Shown piece by piece: positions 2,481-9,922 of a DNA stretch of 14,292 nt. The DNA comes from Anaerolineae bacterium (lineage in GTDB: Bacteria; Chloroflexota; Anaerolineae; DUEN01), in assembly GCA_034433615.1 (NCBI GenBank), contig DAOUAJ010000382.1, forward strand, positions 1 to 14,292, read 5' to 3'. Position 1 is the stretch's first letter. Each line of letters begins with the position of its first letter. Position numbers and translations under genes: made by a program. Below the pieces are notes generated by a model. It had not been told where the DNA came from, searched no databases, and worked only from the letters and a program-made list of their open reading frames with translations.

Positions 2481-4182
2481 CAAGTTTCGTTCGCTCAATA
2501 CGATACACGACGAATGAAAGGCTGCCGTCCCCCCGATGCGTCTCGAAGCGGGGGATCATGACGATCCCGCGAGCAGCCAGCGCCGCCTGGGCCGCGTCGC
2601 GCTCAGCCAGGCGCCAACCAGGAAAAACGATGTAACGTACGATCTGAGGAGGACCGTCGGCATCGGCCACCAGCGCCTCCGTGGAGTCGTAATAACGAAA
2701 GTGGAAAGGCACATCATAGAGGTAGTAACGCCAGTGCCAGCCCAGCCAGCGATGGTATAACACCGCGCCTGAAGGCAGTTCCGATCTGAGGAAAGTGGCC
2801 ACCAGGTCAATGCCATCATACGCGCCATGGTCGGAGCCGACCGGGAAACCGCTTTTCGCTGCCGTCACGGCCGGGCTGGCCAGCATCAAGGTGAACAGGG
2901 CTGTCATCGCCAGGACGCCGGCGCGCCGCGCTGCCGGACCGAACCGCTGTTCCCAGCCGCGCAGGGTCGCTTCTGCCAGAGTCAGGACAACCCGCGCCCC
3001 CAGAAGCGCAACGATCGGCGCCAGGGGAAGTAAGTAACGATCCCAAATCTGGAAGTTGACCACGATGTGCAGCGCCATGTAGACCAGCCCGTATCCCAGT
3101 AGAATCAGATCGGTTCTCCAGGCCGTGGGCAGTACCACGGGGGAAGAAGGCCTGTTTTCAGCCTGCGGAGGCAGGCTTCGCAAAGGTAGTAGCCGCGACT
3201 TCCAGTCGCCCAGCTTCTGTCGCCATGCCTGCCACGCCAGCCCCGGCAGCCCGATGGCCAGTAGCGCGTTCAGCCAGGGCGAGCCGGTCAGATAACTCAG
3301 CCACGGCAGCCACTTGATCGCGCGGGCGGGCCACTCAGCGAGAGATGTCAGCCAAAGCCCGCCGTACGAGATGGCACTCTGCGCCAGGAACCCAGGGCGG
3401 TCAGGCGGCAGATAGCGCCAACTGTCCCACTGGATTGCCTTCCAGATCGGATAGCCCACACCCAGAACGAAGAGGCTGGCGGCAATCGGCGCACTCCAAC
3501 GCCCAGGCAACGTTGGTCCCAGGGCAGCAAGCCGGGCGATAACCGACAACCGGTAACCGAAGAGCAGATGTCTCCGCGTCTCCGTATCCTCGCGTCCTCG
3601 CGTCCCCGCGTCTCCCCTTCCTGAGATCACCCATCCCAGCCCCAAAACCAGCGGCAGGAAGAAGATCCCCTGCTGCTTGGTGATGGCGGCCATTCCGATT
3701 CCCAGCCCGGCCAGACCCCAGCCCCCGTACGCCGCCGCCAGGCAGCCAGCCAGCCCGAAGAAAATCATGAGGGGATCGGTGAAGGCGGTGGGACTGAACA
3801 GGATCGCCATAGGCGATGCGGTGAAGAGGGTCGTCGCTACCCAGGCGGTGTGCTCCCCATACAGCCGGCGGGCCAGCGCGTAGACGAGCGGGATGCTGAG
3901 AAGGCCGGCCAGCAGCCCCGGCAACCGGGCCACTACCTCACTGGGACCGAGCCAGGTGAAAAAGTGGGCCAGGACGTACAGGAAAAGGGGCGGCTTGTCT
4001 ACCGGCACCGTGCGCAGCATGACATCGCGCTGGGTACTGATCAGCAGCCCCCAGGATGCATAGAGGGCCTCATCTTGGTGAAATCGGTGCGCCCACAGTG
4101 GTGGCAGGCGTAGTAACAGCCCGGCCAGCATCATGCTGGCCAGCACCAACTTGTCGCGGAGAATCAACCCAGGCGTAGCCAT
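2470..4182 (-). CDS. PMT_2 / ArnT-like GT-C membrane glycosyltransferase (GT39/GT83-type). Start assigned to ATG 4182; the ORF-track TTG start at 4275 is the alternative
   Basis: Family hallmarks: a DE motif in the first extracytoplasmic loop (RFHQDEALYASWG), the KPPLFLYVLAHFF motif (KPPL-Y-W in ArnT/PMT_2), ARLPGLLAGLLSIPLVYALARRLYG, roughly 11-13 TM helices, and a C-terminal soluble domain of about 130 aa. ATG 4182 places TM1 (LVLASMMLAGLLL) about 12 residues in. TTG 4275 directly abuts the GT2 stop. Neither start has a strong SD. Confidence 0.75.
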   Translation of the reverse strand: MATPGLILRDKLVLASMMLAGLLLRLPPLWAHRFHQDEALYASWGLLISTQRDVMLRTVPVDKPPLFLYVLAHFFTWLGPSEVVARLPGLLAGLLSIPLVYALARRLYGEHTAWVATTLFTASPMAILFSPTAFTDPLMIFFGLAGCLAAAYGGWGLAGLGIGMAAITKQQGIFFLPLVLGLGWVISGRGDAGTRGREDTETRRHLLFGYRLSVIARLAALGPTLPGRWSAPIAASLFVLGVGYPIWKAIQWDSWRYLPPDRPGFLAQSAISYGGLWLTSLAEWPARAIKWLPWLSYLTGSPWLNALLAIGLPGLAWQAWRQKLGDWKSRLLPLRSLPPQAENRPSSPVVLPTAWRTDLILLGYGLVYMALHIVVNFQIWDRYLLPLAPIVALLGARVVLTLAEATLRGWEQRFGPAARRAGVLAMTALFTLMLASPAVTAAKSGFPVGSDHGAYDGIDLVATFLRSELPSGAVLYHRWLGWHWRYYLYDVPFHFRYYDSTEALVADADGPPQIVRYIVFPGWRLAERDAAQAALAARGIVMIPRFETHRGDGSLSFVVYRIERTKLDGR

Positions 4183-5283: not shown

Positions 5284-5868
5284 TCACCCTTCGCCCACCT
5301 GATGGGCCAGAATGATGGCCCAGGCGACCTCCTTCATAGGTTTACGGTTGTTCATGGACATCTTCTGAATTTTACGGAACGCCTCGGCCTCCGACAGCCC
5401 CTGGCGGTCCATGAGGATGCCTTTGGCACGATCCACTAACTTGCGCGTCTCCAGCGCCTCTTGCAGATCGTCTACCTGCTTTTGCATCTCCATGAACTCA
5501 CGAAAGCGGGCCAAAGCTACCTCGATAGCAGGAGCCAGGTCGGTCTCCCGGATTGGCTTCACCAAGTAGCCGGTCACACCAGCCTCGCGCGCGCGCGCCA
5601 CCAGGTCGTGCTGACTATAGGCGCTGAGCAGCAACACCGGAGCGATGCGCTCCTCCGTCAGAATCTTAGCCGCCTCGATGCCGTCCATATCAGGCATCTT
5701 GATGTCCATGATCACGATATCCGGCTTGAGCTCTCTGGCCAGATTCACGGCACTGCGTCCGTCGCCGACCTCCCCCACGACCAGGTAACCCAGGTTGGTT
5801 AACATCTCCCGTAGATCCAATCGGATCAATGCCTCATCGTCGGCAATCACGACCCGAGTCTTTTCCAC
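5284..5868 (-). CDS. ANTAR-domain response regulator (receiver plus ANTAR RNA-binding output; PdtaR/AmiR/NasT-like)
   Basis: Receiver motifs: VVIADDEALIRLDL, IVIMDIKMPDMDGIEAAK, VTGYLVKP. The C-terminus QEALETRKLVDRAKGILMDRQGLSEAEAFRKIQKMSMNNRKPMKEVAWAI is a typical ANTAR helix bundle. The SD GGGAGG lies 9 nt upstream of ATG 5868, 6 nt after the kinase stop. Confidence 0.85.
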   Translation of the reverse strand: MEKTRVVIADDEALIRLDLREMLTNLGYLVVGEVGDGRSAVNLARELKPDIVIMDIKMPDMDGIEAAKILTEERIAPVLLLSAYSQHDLVARAREAGVTGYLVKPIRETDLAPAIEVALARFREFMEMQKQVDDLQEALETRKLVDRAKGILMDRQGLSEAEAFRKIQKMSMNNRKPMKEVAWAIILAHQVGEG

Positions 5869-5874
5869 GGCTTA

Positions 5875-7452
5875 TCACCCTCCCAAAGGCAATTTTGGAA
5901 AAGAGACCTCAGCGACAACGCCATCCTTCTGATACAAAGAGAAGGTCCCTTTGAGATCGTCTCGAACCAAGGTTTGCACAATCTGCAGGCCCAAAGTTCG
6001 AGCCTGCTCCAACGAGAATCCCTCCGGCAGGCCGTGTCCATTGTCCACGATGCGGATCACGACCCTGTTCGCGATGTTGGTCAGATCGGCCTGAATGTGC
6101 CCCTCTTCCTCGCCATCAAATCCATGTTCCAGGGCGTTCAGGAGCAATTCGTTAAAAACCAGCGCGCAGGCAGTGGCCTGATCTTTGTGCAGATAAATGC
6201 TAGGGCCCCTCAACTCAATGCGGATGCGACAACCCGGCGCTAAAGTGACTTGCTCGGTCTGGCTGATGATGCGCTGAAACACGTCACGAATGTTGATGTG
6301 CTGCCCTCTGTCATGGGATAGATAATCATGGATGACGGCTACACTCAGGATGCGATTAATGGCCTCTTCCAGTTCGTGGCGGGCCTCCTCCGTCTGACAT
6401 CGCCTGGATTGCATACGCAGCACCGAAGCGATGTTTTGCAAGTTGTTCTTCACCCGATGATGAACTTCCTGCACCATCGCCCGTTGCACGTTCAGCTCTT
6501 GCTGCCTGTGCCGCGCTTCCGTGTCATCATGCACCAGGATCAATGCGCCCGCTTGGCGTCGGTAATTCGCCCGTCGGGATAGACGGTCACCGATGGCCGC
6601 AGGCAGCGGCCACGGAGGATCATAACGCAGCAGCGGGATCACCTGGCGAATCCAGTAGCGAGTTTGCTCTTCCCCTTCCCATTGCTGGCATAGCCCGGTT
6701 CGCAGCGCCGTGGCTACCAGCTCGTCGTCCCGAGTCTGCAGATCGCCTATCCACTTGCCGCGGAGATCTTCTAAATAACCCAGGTGACGGTACAGGTGGG
6801 TGGCAATCCCGCTTAGATAAGTGATGCGTCGTTGTAAGTCGGTGACGACGATCCCATCCCATTCGCCGAATGGTCCTAAAGCTTTTGCACCCCGCAGATC
6901 ACCCCGTATAGCCATCTGTTGAACCCAAGAAAGGGCCCGCTGGAAGACGCGAGAACGGCGGCGGTGACGCTCTCGTTCGATCAGGTTGGTCTCGATGGCT
7001 AACGCGGCAATGATCTGGCCGCGAGGGCCATAGATGGGGTAGACTTCTTGAATGACAGGGGCATCGCCCTCGACCACTCGTTGATGGTGGCCAGATACCC
7101 CATCGTTTAAAGCGCGCAAGACGAGAGGTTCGTCCGCCTGCTTGACTGTTTGCCCCAGCAACGAGTTGGGATGGAGGGGAGAGATAGAACGCGGCTGTGC
7201 CTGGGCGATGATAGCTGCCGAACGAGCGTTCAGGCGGCCGTAGAGAAGCACATCCGCCCGGCTGACTCCGGCCGTGATCGCCAAACCATCCTCCACCTGC
7301 TGGAGAAACTGAAGATCCGCATCACTCAAGCCCTGACAGCTTTTGACGATCGGGTGCATATGAGTCCATAGGCTACCAAGCCAGGCTCCCATGCCTGGGA
7401 TTCTCTTTATCAAGTGCAACATACAACAAAAGCCGACGGCATTGCAAGCCAT
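5875..7452 (-). CDS. Cytosolic sensor histidine kinase, HisKA_2 plus HATPase_c with N-terminal GAF/PAS-like sensor region (PdtaS-like). Start uncertain (7452, 7392 or 7359)
   Basis: The H-box EVHHRVKNNLQNIASVLRMQ is the HisKA_2 signature. The ATPase motifs NELLLNALEHG and DNGHGLP are present. No TM segments. The gene is immediately upstream of and cotranscribed with the ANTAR regulator. None of the three candidate ATGs has a convincing SD. Confidence 0.8.
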   Translation of the reverse strand: MACNAVGFCCMLHLIKRIPGMGAWLGSLWTHMHPIVKSCQGLSDADLQFLQQVEDGLAITAGVSRADVLLYGRLNARSAAIIAQAQPRSISPLHPNSLLGQTVKQADEPLVLRALNDGVSGHHQRVVEGDAPVIQEVYPIYGPRGQIIAALAIETNLIERERHRRRSRVFQRALSWVQQMAIRGDLRGAKALGPFGEWDGIVVTDLQRRITYLSGIATHLYRHLGYLEDLRGKWIGDLQTRDDELVATALRTGLCQQWEGEEQTRYWIRQVIPLLRYDPPWPLPAAIGDRLSRRANYRRQAGALILVHDDTEARHRQQELNVQRAMVQEVHHRVKNNLQNIASVLRMQSRRCQTEEARHELEEAINRILSVAVIHDYLSHDRGQHINIRDVFQRIISQTEQVTLAPGCRIRIELRGPSIYLHKDQATACALVFNELLLNALEHGFDGEEEGHIQADLTNIANRVVIRIVDNGHGLPEGFSLEQARTLGLQIVQTLVRDDLKGTFSLYQKDGVVAEVSFPKLPLGG

Positions 7453-7541: not shown

Positions 7542-7618
7542 TGGTCGGGGCGGGCGGATTTGAACCGCCGGCCACTTGAACCCCATTCAAGTGCGCTACC
7601 TGGCTGCGCTACGCCCCG
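7542..7618 (-). tRNA. tRNA-Pro (anticodon GGG), 77 nt including the encoded CCA
   Basis: Folded by hand: acceptor CGGGGCG/CGCCCCG (C1:G72, typical of bacterial tRNA-Pro), D-stem GCGC/GCGC, anticodon stem CTTGA/TCAAG with loop A-T-GGG-G-T (G37), T-stem GGCGG/CCGCC with T-loop TTCAAAT, discriminator A, CCA. Confidence 0.9.
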
Positions 7619-7629
7619 AAAGCAAAAAC

Positions 7630-7658
7630 ATTATATCAGAAGGCTCAGAAAAAGGCAA
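7630..7658 (-). promoter_or_regulatory. Putative sigma70 promoter for tRNA-Pro (minus strand): TTGCCT-N17-TGaTATAAT, with the -10 about 11 nt upstream of the tRNA 5' end
   Basis: Reverse complement of 7630-7635 is TATAAT, preceded by an extended -10 TG. Reverse complement of 7653-7658 is TTGCCT with a 17-nt spacer. Confidence 0.45.
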
Positions 7659-7769
7659 ATGACCCGGACGAAAGACGTCGTACAGCCTGCCCTCGCCAGA
7701 GGGGCCAGGGGACGGGCAATTACCGCAGATGCTGAAGTATCGAAAAGCTCTGGTAGCCACTATAGGTTA

Positions 7770-7807
7770 TTGACAAAATGGTTCTTTGGGGTTATACTGA
7801 GTATAAT
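7770..7807 (+). promoter_or_regulatory. Promoter P1: TTGACA (7770-7775), 17-nt spacer, TATACT (7793-7798), with a second TATAAT at 7802-7807
   Basis: Consensus -35 with exact 17-nt spacing to a 5/6 -10 element, seen directly. It sits in an AT-rich stretch upstream of the 84-codon ORF. Confidence 0.55.
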
Positions 7808-7822
7808 AGAACGGGTGTTCTA
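7807..7822. promoter_or_regulatory. Perfect 16-bp palindrome TAGAAC-GGGT-GTTCTA containing a GAAC-N4-GTTC core (Gram-positive/Chloroflexi-type LexA/DinR Cheo-box motif), overlapping the P1 -10 and transcription start region
   Basis: Seen directly. GAAC-N4-GTTC is the established LexA operator core in Bacillus-type and Chloroflexi-type SOS regulons. The symmetry extends beyond the core to a full 6-4-6 palindrome. Its position over the promoter core fits a repressor site. Confidence 0.4.
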
Positions 7823-7854
7823 TGCCAGCGCAGGGGAAGTCACCCATTGCGTCT

Positions 7855-7883
7855 TTGACCAACAAGGCCGTCTGTGCTAGAAT
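7855..7883 (+). promoter_or_regulatory. Promoter P2: TTGACC (7855-7860), 17-nt spacer, TGcTAGAAT extended -10 (7875-7883)
   Basis: Seen directly. A second near-consensus promoter about 80 nt upstream of the start codon. Confidence 0.5.
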
Positions 7884-7902
7884 CGTCCCAATTTGATCCC
7901 AT

Positions 7903-7942
7903 GGCCCATGCGGGCCACAAGCGGCCCATGCGGGCCACAAGG
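7903..7942 (+). repeat. Two tandem 20-bp direct repeats GGCCCATGCGGGCCACAAG(c/g). Each contains a short hairpin (GGCC-CAUGCG-GGCC or GGCCC-AUGC-GGGCC) and ends 5 nt before the SD
   Basis: Seen directly. 7903-7921 and 7923-7941 are identical 19-mers. They lie in the 5' leader between P2 and the AGGAGG at 7947-7952. Confidence 0.7.
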
Positions 7943-7964
7943 TTAGAGGAGGAGAAGAGAAACT

Positions 7965-8219
7965 ATGGCCTATCGCAATAACACCGGTCTCGATATTTGG
8001 TTCAAGGATGAGATTTTGCAGACATTACGGGCAGTGGACTCAGCAAATATGGACATTGCTGGCGAGATTGATTCGCTGGAAATGCGCTTCTACCGACGCG
8101 GTTTTGAAGCAGCTATCCGCTCCGTGGCCGAGGCATTTGGCCTGGACTATCACCCTCCAGTCTCCAGGCGCCACGGCTCTCCTCCTCCTGTTGACGTGAC
8201 TTCACGCCTTATCCATTAA
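7965..8219 (+). CDS. Small hypothetical protein (84 aa, soluble, predicted helical N-terminal half, Pro-rich C-terminal tail). No recognisable family
   Basis: ATG 7965 is preceded by AGGAGGAG. It is driven by two strong promoters. No TM segment. Third-position and overall G+C are visibly lower than in flanking genes. Confidence 0.6.
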   Translation: MAYRNNTGLDIWFKDEILQTLRAVDSANMDIAGEIDSLEMRFYRRGFEAAIRSVAEAFGLDYHPPVSRRHGSPPPVDVTSRLIH

Positions 8220-8298: not shown

Positions 8299-9792
8299 CT
8301 AGGTTTCAGTCGCCTTAGTTTCTGGCGGCTCTCGGTGCTCGGACTGGACCATTGGGGGCTGGCCAATAAAGACCTGGGCGTGGGGATTTTCCATCAATTT
8401 TTCCATAGCGCTAATGTAGCGCATCCCTGCTGCGGTGTCTTCCGCGCAATGGGTCATGATCCAGCCTAGCACACGCTCGACACGTTGAGCCACGTCAGGC
8501 GGCAACTTGCGCCAGGCTTCCTCCAGGCTGTTAATGTATTCTGAGATCGCCTTCTGTCGGGCTGCCAACCGGACCTCTTCAAAGGTGCGTACTCGCTTGG
8601 CGTCCGCCTCTCCCTGGGAAATACTGAGTTGTTTCTGGCGATCAGCGATCCACACGGCCAAGACCCGATCTGCGACCTCTTCCGGCAGTGTCATCGTATT
8701 CACTGCCATCCCTATGATCTCCACACCCCATCCGCTTGTCAGCCGACGGCACTCTTCAGTCGCTTCACTTCCAATCAATTCCAGGATCGCGGCAGACGTT
8801 TCCTCAGTGATCGGGAATAGGCCCTCTAGTGTATGACGTCCGATCACACGCCGCAATGCGATCTCGGCAACACTGGTCACAGCCCGTGGCCACTCATTTG
8901 GAGCCAGCGTCACCTTTAGCATTTGTACGATGTCTTCACGGCGTGCGGGGCAGAGGCTATCTTTGATGACCCCGCTCATCTCGTCATCTCCTTCCTCACC
9001 GTCAGCCAGATCGGCTTGTGGAAACCGGTAGCCTACTGTGGCAGAGACATGAAGAAGAGAGACACCATCTGCCGTGAGTACGTCGCCTGGTTCCACTGGC
9101 AAGAACCGTGGGTTCAGCGGTACCACTCCGCGTACACGCTCAAACGGCTTCAGAGTCACGGTGCCTGGACCAACGATCCGTGTGATCTTACCACCGCGTT
9201 CGAGCACTACTGCCTGGCAAGGGCGTACCACCAGGATGCCAGGGCCTCCTAACAAGCGCAGGATGCCAGCCTTCTTCTCATCCTTGATCTCACCATCCTC
9301 CACGATGAGAAAAGGCCCTTGCAAGCCAGCGATCAAGGTTAGCAGTTGCCGCACAACTGCACTGCGACCTAAGTCGCGCAGCGGATGGGCAGCCAGTATC
9401 AGCTCACTGCTAAGGAAAGCCAGAACAAGAAGAAAGGTAACGAGCAGACTCATAGGGGTCAGGTAGCTCACTAACAGCAGGATGAAGGCCAGGGCTGCTT
9501 CCTGAATCGCCATCTCGCTGAATGGTTTGCCCAAGGAGAGGGGAATCAATGTGAGGGCTAGCCCGGTACCCGGAAATAGGATCAGCAATCCCAGGAAGGT
9601 AAATCGTCGGAAGTTCTGAGGTACGAGCAACAGGAAGCCGCTGCCCATTAATATGCTGATTATCACCAGATGGAGGAAAGCACCCGGGATGGGCACGAAA
9701 ATGGTTGCCATGCCCAACGCAATCAACACGATACCCAGAGCCAGACGAACTCCAGAGCGCTGAGGGGGCCTCACTGATAATAACGTTTCCAT
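8299..9792 (-). CDS. SPFH/band-7 (stomatin/flotillin/HflK-like) domain membrane protein with a 4-5 helix N-terminal membrane region and a C-terminal coiled-coil; 497 aa from ATG 9792
   Basis: SPFH core ILVVRPCQAVVLERGGKITRIVGPGTVTLKPFERVRGVVPLNPRFLPVEPGDVLTADGVSLLHVSATVGYRF. A coiled-coil-like stretch QGEADAKRVRTFEEVRLAARQKAISEYINSLEEAWRKL. The SD GGAGGTGA lies 4 nt upstream of ATG 9792. The track's GTG at 9816 adds 8 residues upstream of that SD. Confidence 0.85.
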   Translation of the reverse strand: METLLSVRPPQRSGVRLALGIVLIALGMATIFVPIPGAFLHLVIISILMGSGFLLLVPQNFRRFTFLGLLILFPGTGLALTLIPLSLGKPFSEMAIQEAALAFILLLVSYLTPMSLLVTFLLVLAFLSSELILAAHPLRDLGRSAVVRQLLTLIAGLQGPFLIVEDGEIKDEKKAGILRLLGGPGILVVRPCQAVVLERGGKITRIVGPGTVTLKPFERVRGVVPLNPRFLPVEPGDVLTADGVSLLHVSATVGYRFPQADLADGEEGDDEMSGVIKDSLCPARREDIVQMLKVTLAPNEWPRAVTSVAEIALRRVIGRHTLEGLFPITEETSAAILELIGSEATEECRRLTSGWGVEIIGMAVNTMTLPEEVADRVLAVWIADRQKQLSISQGEADAKRVRTFEEVRLAARQKAISEYINSLEEAWRKLPPDVAQRVERVLGWIMTHCAEDTAAGMRYISAMEKLMENPHAQVFIGQPPMVQSEHREPPETKATET

Positions 9793-9922
9793 CACTTCAC
9801 CTCCTGCAGAAGACACGAAGACCAGCTTCTAATGCGCACCCCACCTTTACGTCGCTCATCCGACATGCTAGCTTGCACAACTATATCATATTTTCTTTAT
9901 CTGGGAAAGTCTTTACCAGATT

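Follow-up and report, generated by a model that had tools for sequence, protein, structure and literature searches.

In a 14,292-nucleotide stretch of DNA from an Anaerolineae bacterium (contig DAOUAJ010000382.1, hereafter the window), we found that an 84-codon gene is preceded by two σ70-type promoters, P1 and P2, and that a palindrome with the architecture of a LexA (SOS) box lies over the start region of P1. Comparison with relatives of this locus makes it probable that P1 is repressed by LexA, that P2 is a LexA-independent basal promoter, and that both drive a conserved small protein of the SOS regulon that is linked to an SPFH/Band-7 partner, a reading drawn from sequence. An initial annotation of the window had described five elements in this control region, namely P1 with an extra TATAAT, the palindrome, P2, a pair of tandem leader hairpins and a strong Shine-Dalgarno sequence, and our sequence reading and scans placed all five at the same coordinates (Table 1).

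P1 matches the σ70 consensus at 11 of 12 positions and is the top σ70-like site of the whole 14.3-kb window in a consensus scan. Only five sites in the window reach 10/12, and since each of them is located just upstream of a gene or a tRNA, the σ70 consensus is informative in this genome. Between positions 7300 and 8500, the scan returned four promoter-like sites as opposed to 0.8 expected from shuffled sequences. P2 has 10/12 matches and an extended −10 element, and it carries no operator. The palindrome is perfect over 16 bp and starts 8 nt past the P1 −10 element, i.e., over the expected start site. Its core, GAAC-N4-GTTC, occurs three times in the window against 0.2 expected, and only the copy at 7809 is both intergenic and extended to the full 16-bp palindrome.

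The strongest evidence for these elements is their conservation. We aligned the upstream regions of nine related loci (L001–L009; loci of relatives bear L numbers throughout) and counted the invariant positions over four independent lineages. The close homologues of the 84-aa protein form four clusters with 68–99% identity; the four lineages of the footprint share only 68–71% protein identity, and still the promoter hexamers and the half-sites of the box are almost invariant while the DNA between them varies freely. In P1, the −35 element is invariant at 6/6 positions and the −10 element at 4/6; in P2, both elements are invariant at 5/6 positions; and the half-sites of the box are invariant at 12/12. 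The corresponding counts are 0/4 for the box spacer, 6/17 for the P1 spacer, 4/17 for the P2 spacer, 4/32 for the box-to-P2 interval and 9/81 for the 5′ untranslated region (UTR). Altogether, 32 of the 36 positions in the hexamers and half-sites are invariant, compared with 35 of 210 in the remaining non-coding DNA. Because these invariant sequences are embedded in variable DNA, P1, the box and P2 are under selection, and both promoters stand out as genuine phylogenetic footprints. In L001, L003 and L007, both promoters match the consensus at 11–12 of 12 positions.

The closest relative allows a finer comparison. Between the window and L009, which are 96–99% identical, there are about 20 substitutions in 570 nt; the spacer and the flanks of the box are substituted while its half-sites are untouched. 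L009 has TTTGCT in place of the extra TATAAT, and the hairpin unit is present there in one copy and is absent from L001–L008. Consequently, only a part of the five-element control region proposed initially is retained: P1, the palindrome and P2 are under selection, while the extra TATAAT and the tandem hairpins are not, the extra TATAAT being a chance occurrence. The initial annotation had made its reading depend on conservation of the region in close relatives carrying the same gene, and P1, the palindrome and P2 are conserved there.

The palindrome has the form of a known operator. Firmicutes and Actinobacteria have GAAC-N4-GTTC as their LexA motif, and variants of it occur in Chloroflexi (PMC4951493, which cites the work of Fernandez de Henestrosa et al. 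(2002) on Dehalococcoides). In at least 13 separate lineages, we found an exact or one-mismatch box at the promoter of a homologue of the small gene, and in the more distant loci it recurs at strong promoters within the subfamily that retains the SPFH neighbor. The same box is present at the homologous promoters of L012, L013, L016, L027, L033 and L035, and it occurs with one mismatch in L015, L029, L030 and L032. Its position varies among relatives, being 7–11 nt past the −10 element, abutting the −10 element or inside the −35/−10 spacer. In L012, the box is within the spacer and a second promoter follows about 107 nt downstream; in L016, L027 and L028, it abuts the −10 element; and in L013, L025 and L026, CGAACATATGTTCG directly follows the −10 element, with two degenerate boxes behind it. 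In L033, L034 and L035, a one-mismatch box (two mismatches in L035) covers the spacer and the −10 element and an exact box is placed at +1, and two boxes per promoter are seen in L033, L035 and L036. Among the exact GAAC-N4-GTTC sites in the 202 kb of fetched loci, 20 of 24 are within 300 nt upstream of the small gene, so that the density of exact boxes there is 94-fold above that elsewhere.

The locus L036 connects the box to LexA itself. It contains a canonical lexA gene (LexA_DNA_bind and Peptidase_S24 domains) with TTGACA-cAGAACAAATGTTCGtg-TATAAT upstream, in which the box lies between the −35 and −10 elements; a predicted box in the promoter of lexA itself is the hallmark of LexA autoregulation. 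The next operon begins immediately downstream of lexA with an FtsK/SpoIIIE-like gene of 354 aa (5994–7116), followed by a distant member of the small-protein family, and the consensus promoter ahead of it carries two exact boxes of the form TAGAAC-N4-GTTCT. Besides these three, the 15.4 kb contain no exact box. In addition, L027, L029, L033 and L034 encode, beside the small gene, proteins of 365–372 aa whose S24 peptidase domain is LexA-like, and the S24 domain of the L033 protein, when used as a query, matched LexA proteins; the flanking S24 genes are a second, independent link to RecA-type damage signaling, as far as the predicted domain goes. A tblastn search with approximate LexA and RecA queries gave no match in the loci fetched by then. 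The SOS-type operator named in the initial annotation thus has strong comparative support from its conserved half-sites, its recurrence across lineages, its enrichment and the box at the lexA promoter of L036. It shares the dyad, the spacing and the A/T-rich flanks of the Gram-positive type of LexA operator (the Cheo box of Firmicutes, Actinobacteria and Dehalococcoides), as well as the placement over the −35/−10 spacer, the −10 element or +1 and, in L036, the occurrence at a lexA promoter. Unlike the genes of those systems, the gene putatively regulated here belongs to no described SOS gene family.

From these features, we propose how the region would work. In an undamaged cell, a LexA dimer would occupy TAGAAC-GGGT-GTTCTA, which spans +3 to +18 of P1 and starts about 2 nt past the predicted start, and would block initiation or escape at this near-consensus promoter. 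P2, located 85 bp downstream and having no operator, would supply a basal mRNA with a leader of about 75 nt. Upon DNA damage, RecA-stimulated self-cleavage of LexA would free P1 and add transcripts with a leader of about 160 nt. Both mRNAs would be translated into the same 84-aa helical-hairpin protein, a conserved member of the SOS regulon with a function most likely connected to the SPFH/Band-7 membrane protein that nearly every relative encodes convergently. As P2 lacks an operator and has no fixed phasing to the box, it is predicted to be LexA-independent and to provide basal expression. The distance from the box to P2 ranges from 19 to about 120 nt among the relatives; given this variable distance and the operator-free P2, LexA should not be able to shut P2, and the description of the gene as tightly repressed is probably overstated. 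A comparable arrangement is found in Escherichia coli uvrB, which has the tandem promoters uvrBp1, p2 and p3 with a LexA box in the upstream p2 (PMC6015884). There, as here, the box is on the upstream promoter and the downstream promoter has no box of its own, combining basal and inducible expression. The two systems differ in that the motif type is not the same, the genes are unrelated, the promoters are about 30 bp apart in uvrB and 85 bp apart here, and the uvrB promoter region also has DnaA sites.

Several observations weigh against this proposal. A near-consensus, operator-free P2 would limit the induction ratio and is odd beside a perfect operator on P1. The distant family members in L017–L024 and L031 have no box within 300 nt (260 nt in L031). 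L011 keeps the SPFH partner but has no canonical GAAC-N4-GTTC box, and it has a different perfect inverted repeat instead, AGTACCAG-N8-CTGGTACT (within 206–275), right past the −10 element at +1. The link to lexA comes from L036, whose family member is a distant one (E-value of 1e-8), and the LexA binding data published for the phylum are those for Dehalococcoides only. As for the L011 promoter itself, it reads TTGACA-N17-TAAGAT, and a box-like remnant, TAGACATATTTCTA, is located about 50 nt upstream of it, just past a TATAAT.

Table 1 Features of the control region and the adjacent genes in the window.
Feature	Position	Strand	Details
P1, σ70-type promoter	7770..7798	+	TTGACA 7770–7775, N17, TATACT 7793–7798; predicted start ~7805
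Extra TATAAT	7802–7807		No −35 partner
Putative LexA (SOS) operator, Gram-positive/Chloroflexi type	7807..7822	.	TAGAAC-GGGT-GTTCTA, over the P1 start region
P2, σ70-type promoter	7855..7883	+	TTGACC 7855–7860, N17, TGc-TAGAAT 7875–7883; predicted start ~7890
Tandem GGCCCATGCGGGCCACAAG x2 in the 5′ UTR	7903..7941	+	Units 7903–7921 and 7923–7941
Shine-Dalgarno AGGAGG	7947..7952	+	12 nt before ATG 7965; spacing rather long
84-codon gene (+ stop), two-helix protein of an uncharacterized family	7965..8219	+	
Gene for the convergent 505-aa SPFH/Band-7 membrane protein	8299..9816	−	Pfam Band_7, E-value 9.8e-15

The 84-codon gene encodes a real, conserved small protein, as its homologues in the four close clusters and in a wider family indicate. 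A profile search returned 159 representatives with E-values up to 1e-3 and 106 clusters with E-values up to 1e-5, and one of the family members carries the name "[Chloroflexi bacterium]". The AlphaFold2 model of the protein is a two-helix hairpin with helices at residues 6–34 and 38–57 (pLDDT of 73.5). The conserved residues are W12, I17, A27, N28, Y43-R44, G46, A49-A50 and F58-G59, and the C-terminal tail is variable. Three longer members of 257–284 aa (P0038, P0043 and P0050) consist of three or four tandem hairpin units with the pattern W-F-x-D-I ... Y-x-x-G-F-E-x-A ... F-G. The helical hairpin therefore appears to be a repeatable module, and the tandem-unit proteins suggest that the single units may oligomerize. 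The ribosome-binding site of the relatives is GGAGG, placed 6 nt ahead of the ATG.

Searches of the 84-aa protein against Pfam, NCBIfam, PADLOC and a PDB sequence profile gave no match, and a Foldseek search against the PDB gave a best E-value of 1.9, with all matches being generic helical hairpins. Regarding a phage origin, a scan of viral contigs yielded no relative. We also observed a distant member of 83 aa (P0033) in L031 (1–6148) amid short same-strand open reading frames (ORFs), a DNA methylase and an HNH nuclease, resembling a phage-like early-gene cluster. Small SOS-induced proteins are known from other bacteria and include DinI, SulA, the division inhibitors of the YneA/SosA/ChiZ type and the toxins TisB and DinQ; yneA and sosA adjoin lexA. 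The 84-aa protein resembles them in being short and under predicted direct LexA control, and the family member of L036 is two genes downstream of lexA, with the FtsK-like gene between, which recalls the position of yneA and sosA beside lexA. It differs from them in having no sequence or family match and no transmembrane or LysM segment, and in being a predicted soluble two-helix hairpin with a constant SPFH-gene partner.

This partner is the most persistent feature of the neighborhood. A convergent SPFH homologue with 24–51% identity is located beside the small gene in L001–L008, L011–L014, L016, L025–L030, L032 and L033, so that in relatives the small gene is almost always convergent with a predicted SPFH/Band-7 gene. 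We consider the convergent SPFH gene, which is homologous throughout the subfamily, to be the strongest functional clue for the 84-aa protein that the sequences offer. In three lineages, the neighborhood also contains SPFH-TIR proteins, STAND NTPases, CHAT proteases or S24/TPR proteins. Stretches resembling conflict or defense islands were seen in L033 (10300–19710), L032 (10356–18968) and L029 (1–3307 and 7068–10330). They include an SPFH-TIR fusion with 76% identity to the SPFH gene beside it, STAND NTPases (AAA_16/TPR, nSTAND), a radical SAM/SPASM gene, response-regulator-CHAT proteins, SLFN/AlbA_2 and a large RAMP protein, and PADLOC recognizes in them the TIR domain alone. The S24 family genes are located at 3694–4791 in L027, 3709–4806 in L029 and 10300–11418 in L033, and their N-terminal regions are unannotated or give a faint TPR signal. 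Near 3444 in L027, about 250 nt upstream of the S24 gene, there is a box with one mismatch, TAGAACATTTGTTTCTA.

These neighborhoods allow a bolder idea, which we offer as a speculation with a low probability of being right: the small protein could be an SOS-triggered switch of a conserved Chloroflexota membrane module built on the SPFH/Band-7 protein, to which some genomes would add a LexA-like S24 peptidase with TPR repeats, an SPFH-TIR fusion, STAND NTPases and CHAT proteases. If true, the module could link damage to DNA or the induction of prophages to a response at the membrane that concerns stress, division or defense against phage, and such a membrane module is absent from the current catalogs of defense systems and SOS genes.

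Other readings of the region can be weighed against LexA control of P1 with a basal P2. The convergent arrangement makes antisense read-through into the SPFH gene possible. It is kept over a wide range; the 3′ ends of the two genes overlap by 32–75 nt in L001, L003, L007, L027 and L029; and a scan that sees canonical terminators only found no terminator-like site on the + strand past 8219. Nevertheless, the case is purely positional, in the window a gap of 79 nt separates the two genes, and in L003 and L007 the small gene has weak hairpins at its 3′ end. That transcription induced from P1 and P2 by the SOS response, besides yielding the protein, continues antisense into the SPFH gene and reduces its expression would be compatible with our proposal but is unlikely. 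The palindrome could also serve a regulator that is not the housekeeping LexA, for example the 365–372-aa S24-domain protein, whose genes are mutually related and either directly precede the small gene (L027, L029) or converge on it (L033, L034). In these proteins, only the C-terminal domain matches LexA, with a score below the family cut-off. This alternative is quite improbable, given that no S24 gene was found among the larger ORFs of the window scanned with Pfam, that in L001 no such gene is called up to 3 kb from the small gene, that the S24 proteins have no recognizable DNA-binding domain, and that the palindrome is exactly the published LexA box and is found in the canonical lexA promoter of L036 as well.

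The remaining alternatives assign a role to the leader RNA. P1 could produce a separate small RNA or a regulatory leader while the protein is expressed from P2 alone, as the initial annotation had considered in part, since P1 is 195 nt upstream of the ATG with a complete promoter in between and, in the window, the long leader from P1 is folded more stably than shuffled sequences (z = −3.05). This z value depends on the strain-specific hairpin insert, however, and the relatives have leaders that are no more stably folded than shuffles (z = −0.7 to −0.8). Moreover, the scan showed no terminator in the stretch from P1 to P2, the interval is conserved neither in sequence (the 4/32 positions above) nor in length, and most of the distant relatives have a single promoter with the box on it. 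A search of the window with Rfam 15 at the gathering threshold gave tRNA-Pro alone, and a permissive search of 7750–8000 gave as its best match a microRNA model with 14 bits against a threshold of 90 bits. A small RNA from P1 is thus extremely improbable. Alternatively, the tandem hairpins could be the target of the nearby ANTAR response regulator, which would add a post-transcriptional layer over the SOS control. ANTAR targets consist of two stem-loops joined by a 2–25-nt linker, whose hexaloops start with A and carry G at position 4, and in actinobacteria they are often at the ribosome-binding site (PMC8164766). The region here has two stem-loops with a linker of 6 nt, within that range, about 10 nt upstream of the Shine-Dalgarno sequence, and an ANTAR two-component pair lies about 500 bp from the hairpins (2 kb for the regulator itself) in this lineage only; the element is thus like an ANTAR target in its two adjacent stem-loops near the ribosome-binding site and beside an ANTAR regulator gene. 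It is unlike one in loop size and in the A1 signature: the stable loops are AUGC tetraloops, and opening them to the hexaloop CAUGCG takes about 8 kcal/mol and leaves C at position 1 with G at position 4. A long inter-unit hairpin, predicted to make up 84% of the ensemble, competes with the dual stem-loop. The element is also not conserved, the second hairpin being absent in L009 and both being absent in the other relatives, and the two copies are identical, so that there has been no time for selection. We regard an ANTAR target as very improbable.

In our reading, the two 20-bp units come instead from a recent slipped-strand duplication in the 5′ UTR of this strain that is outside the conserved control logic. 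The duplication is seen in this sequence only, in keeping with the copy numbers in L009 and the other lineages, which speaks against the tandem leader hairpins as a control element; at most, the units may modulate mRNA stability or translation. The units had been described as identical over 20 bp, and this holds for 19 bases repeated with a period of 20, the 20th base being C7922 in one and G7942 in the other. Each unit can form a 5-bp stem with a 4-nt AUGC loop (7903–7916 and 7923–7936). The long inter-unit hairpin is the predicted main form, with −23.6 kcal/mol and 84% of the ensemble against −22.1 kcal/mol and 15% for the two separate hairpins. The sequence after the hairpins is ACAAGGUUAGAGG, which has no U-tract; an intrinsic terminator or attenuator was considered and rejected, as there is no U-tract past the hairpins and no terminator-like site in the scan. 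In addition, we looked for further copies of the unit as a dispersed repeat, and neither the window nor the loci fetched up to that point contained any.

Outside the control region, the window differs from its relatives mainly on the upstream side. Synteny breaks about 30 nt upstream of the P1 −35 element (window 7745–7770 compared with L001, L003 and L007). In these three relatives, the start codon of a divergent pseudouridine-5′-phosphate glycosidase gene (psuG, Indigoidine_A) abuts TTGACA (CAT-TTGACA); the window lacks this gene but is still partly similar to its first codons. The intergenic region shared by L001, L003 and L007 gave no minus-strand promoter for the divergent gene, whose promoter must therefore overlap the P1/box/P2 region. 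Where the relatives have the glycosidase gene, the window has, on the − strand, the ANTAR response regulator (5284–5868) and a PdtaS-like kinase (GAF_PdtaS, HisKA_2 and HATPase_c; 5875–7452). A tRNA-Pro(GGG) is located at 7542–7618 on the − strand and has a promoter-like site of its own, TTGCCT-N17-TGn-TATAAT, at 7658–7630. The strong terminator-like hairpin after this tRNA (11-bp stem, 7458–7430) overlaps the first codons of the kinase ORF, which starts at 7452; thus, the kinase may start further downstream. On the other side, genes for a GT4 glycosyltransferase and an epimerase follow the SPFH gene. They are 81–87% identical to those of L010, an Anaerolineae metagenome-assembled genome and the sole match of the window in a search of 185,579 species genomes, which places the window in an Anaerolineae-like member of the Chloroflexota.

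In Proteobacteria, Firmicutes and Actinobacteria, LexA regulons have been mapped well. Our literature search found no study of a LexA regulon in Anaerolineae, and the only experimental LexA work that we found cited for the phylum Chloroflexota is that on Dehalococcoides. Tandem promoters with the operator on the upstream one are a textbook architecture; the new part is what appears to be an undescribed, conserved SOS gene of Chloroflexota. For the phylum, the locus provides a clean and testable SOS promoter, together with a consensus box, TAGAAC-AnnY-GTTCTA, and a predicted, previously unrecognized and widely conserved SOS gene with a fixed genomic partner, the SPFH membrane protein. The pairing of the small gene with the SPFH gene hints at a link between DNA damage signaling and membrane scaffolds or, in some genomes, defense-island genes.

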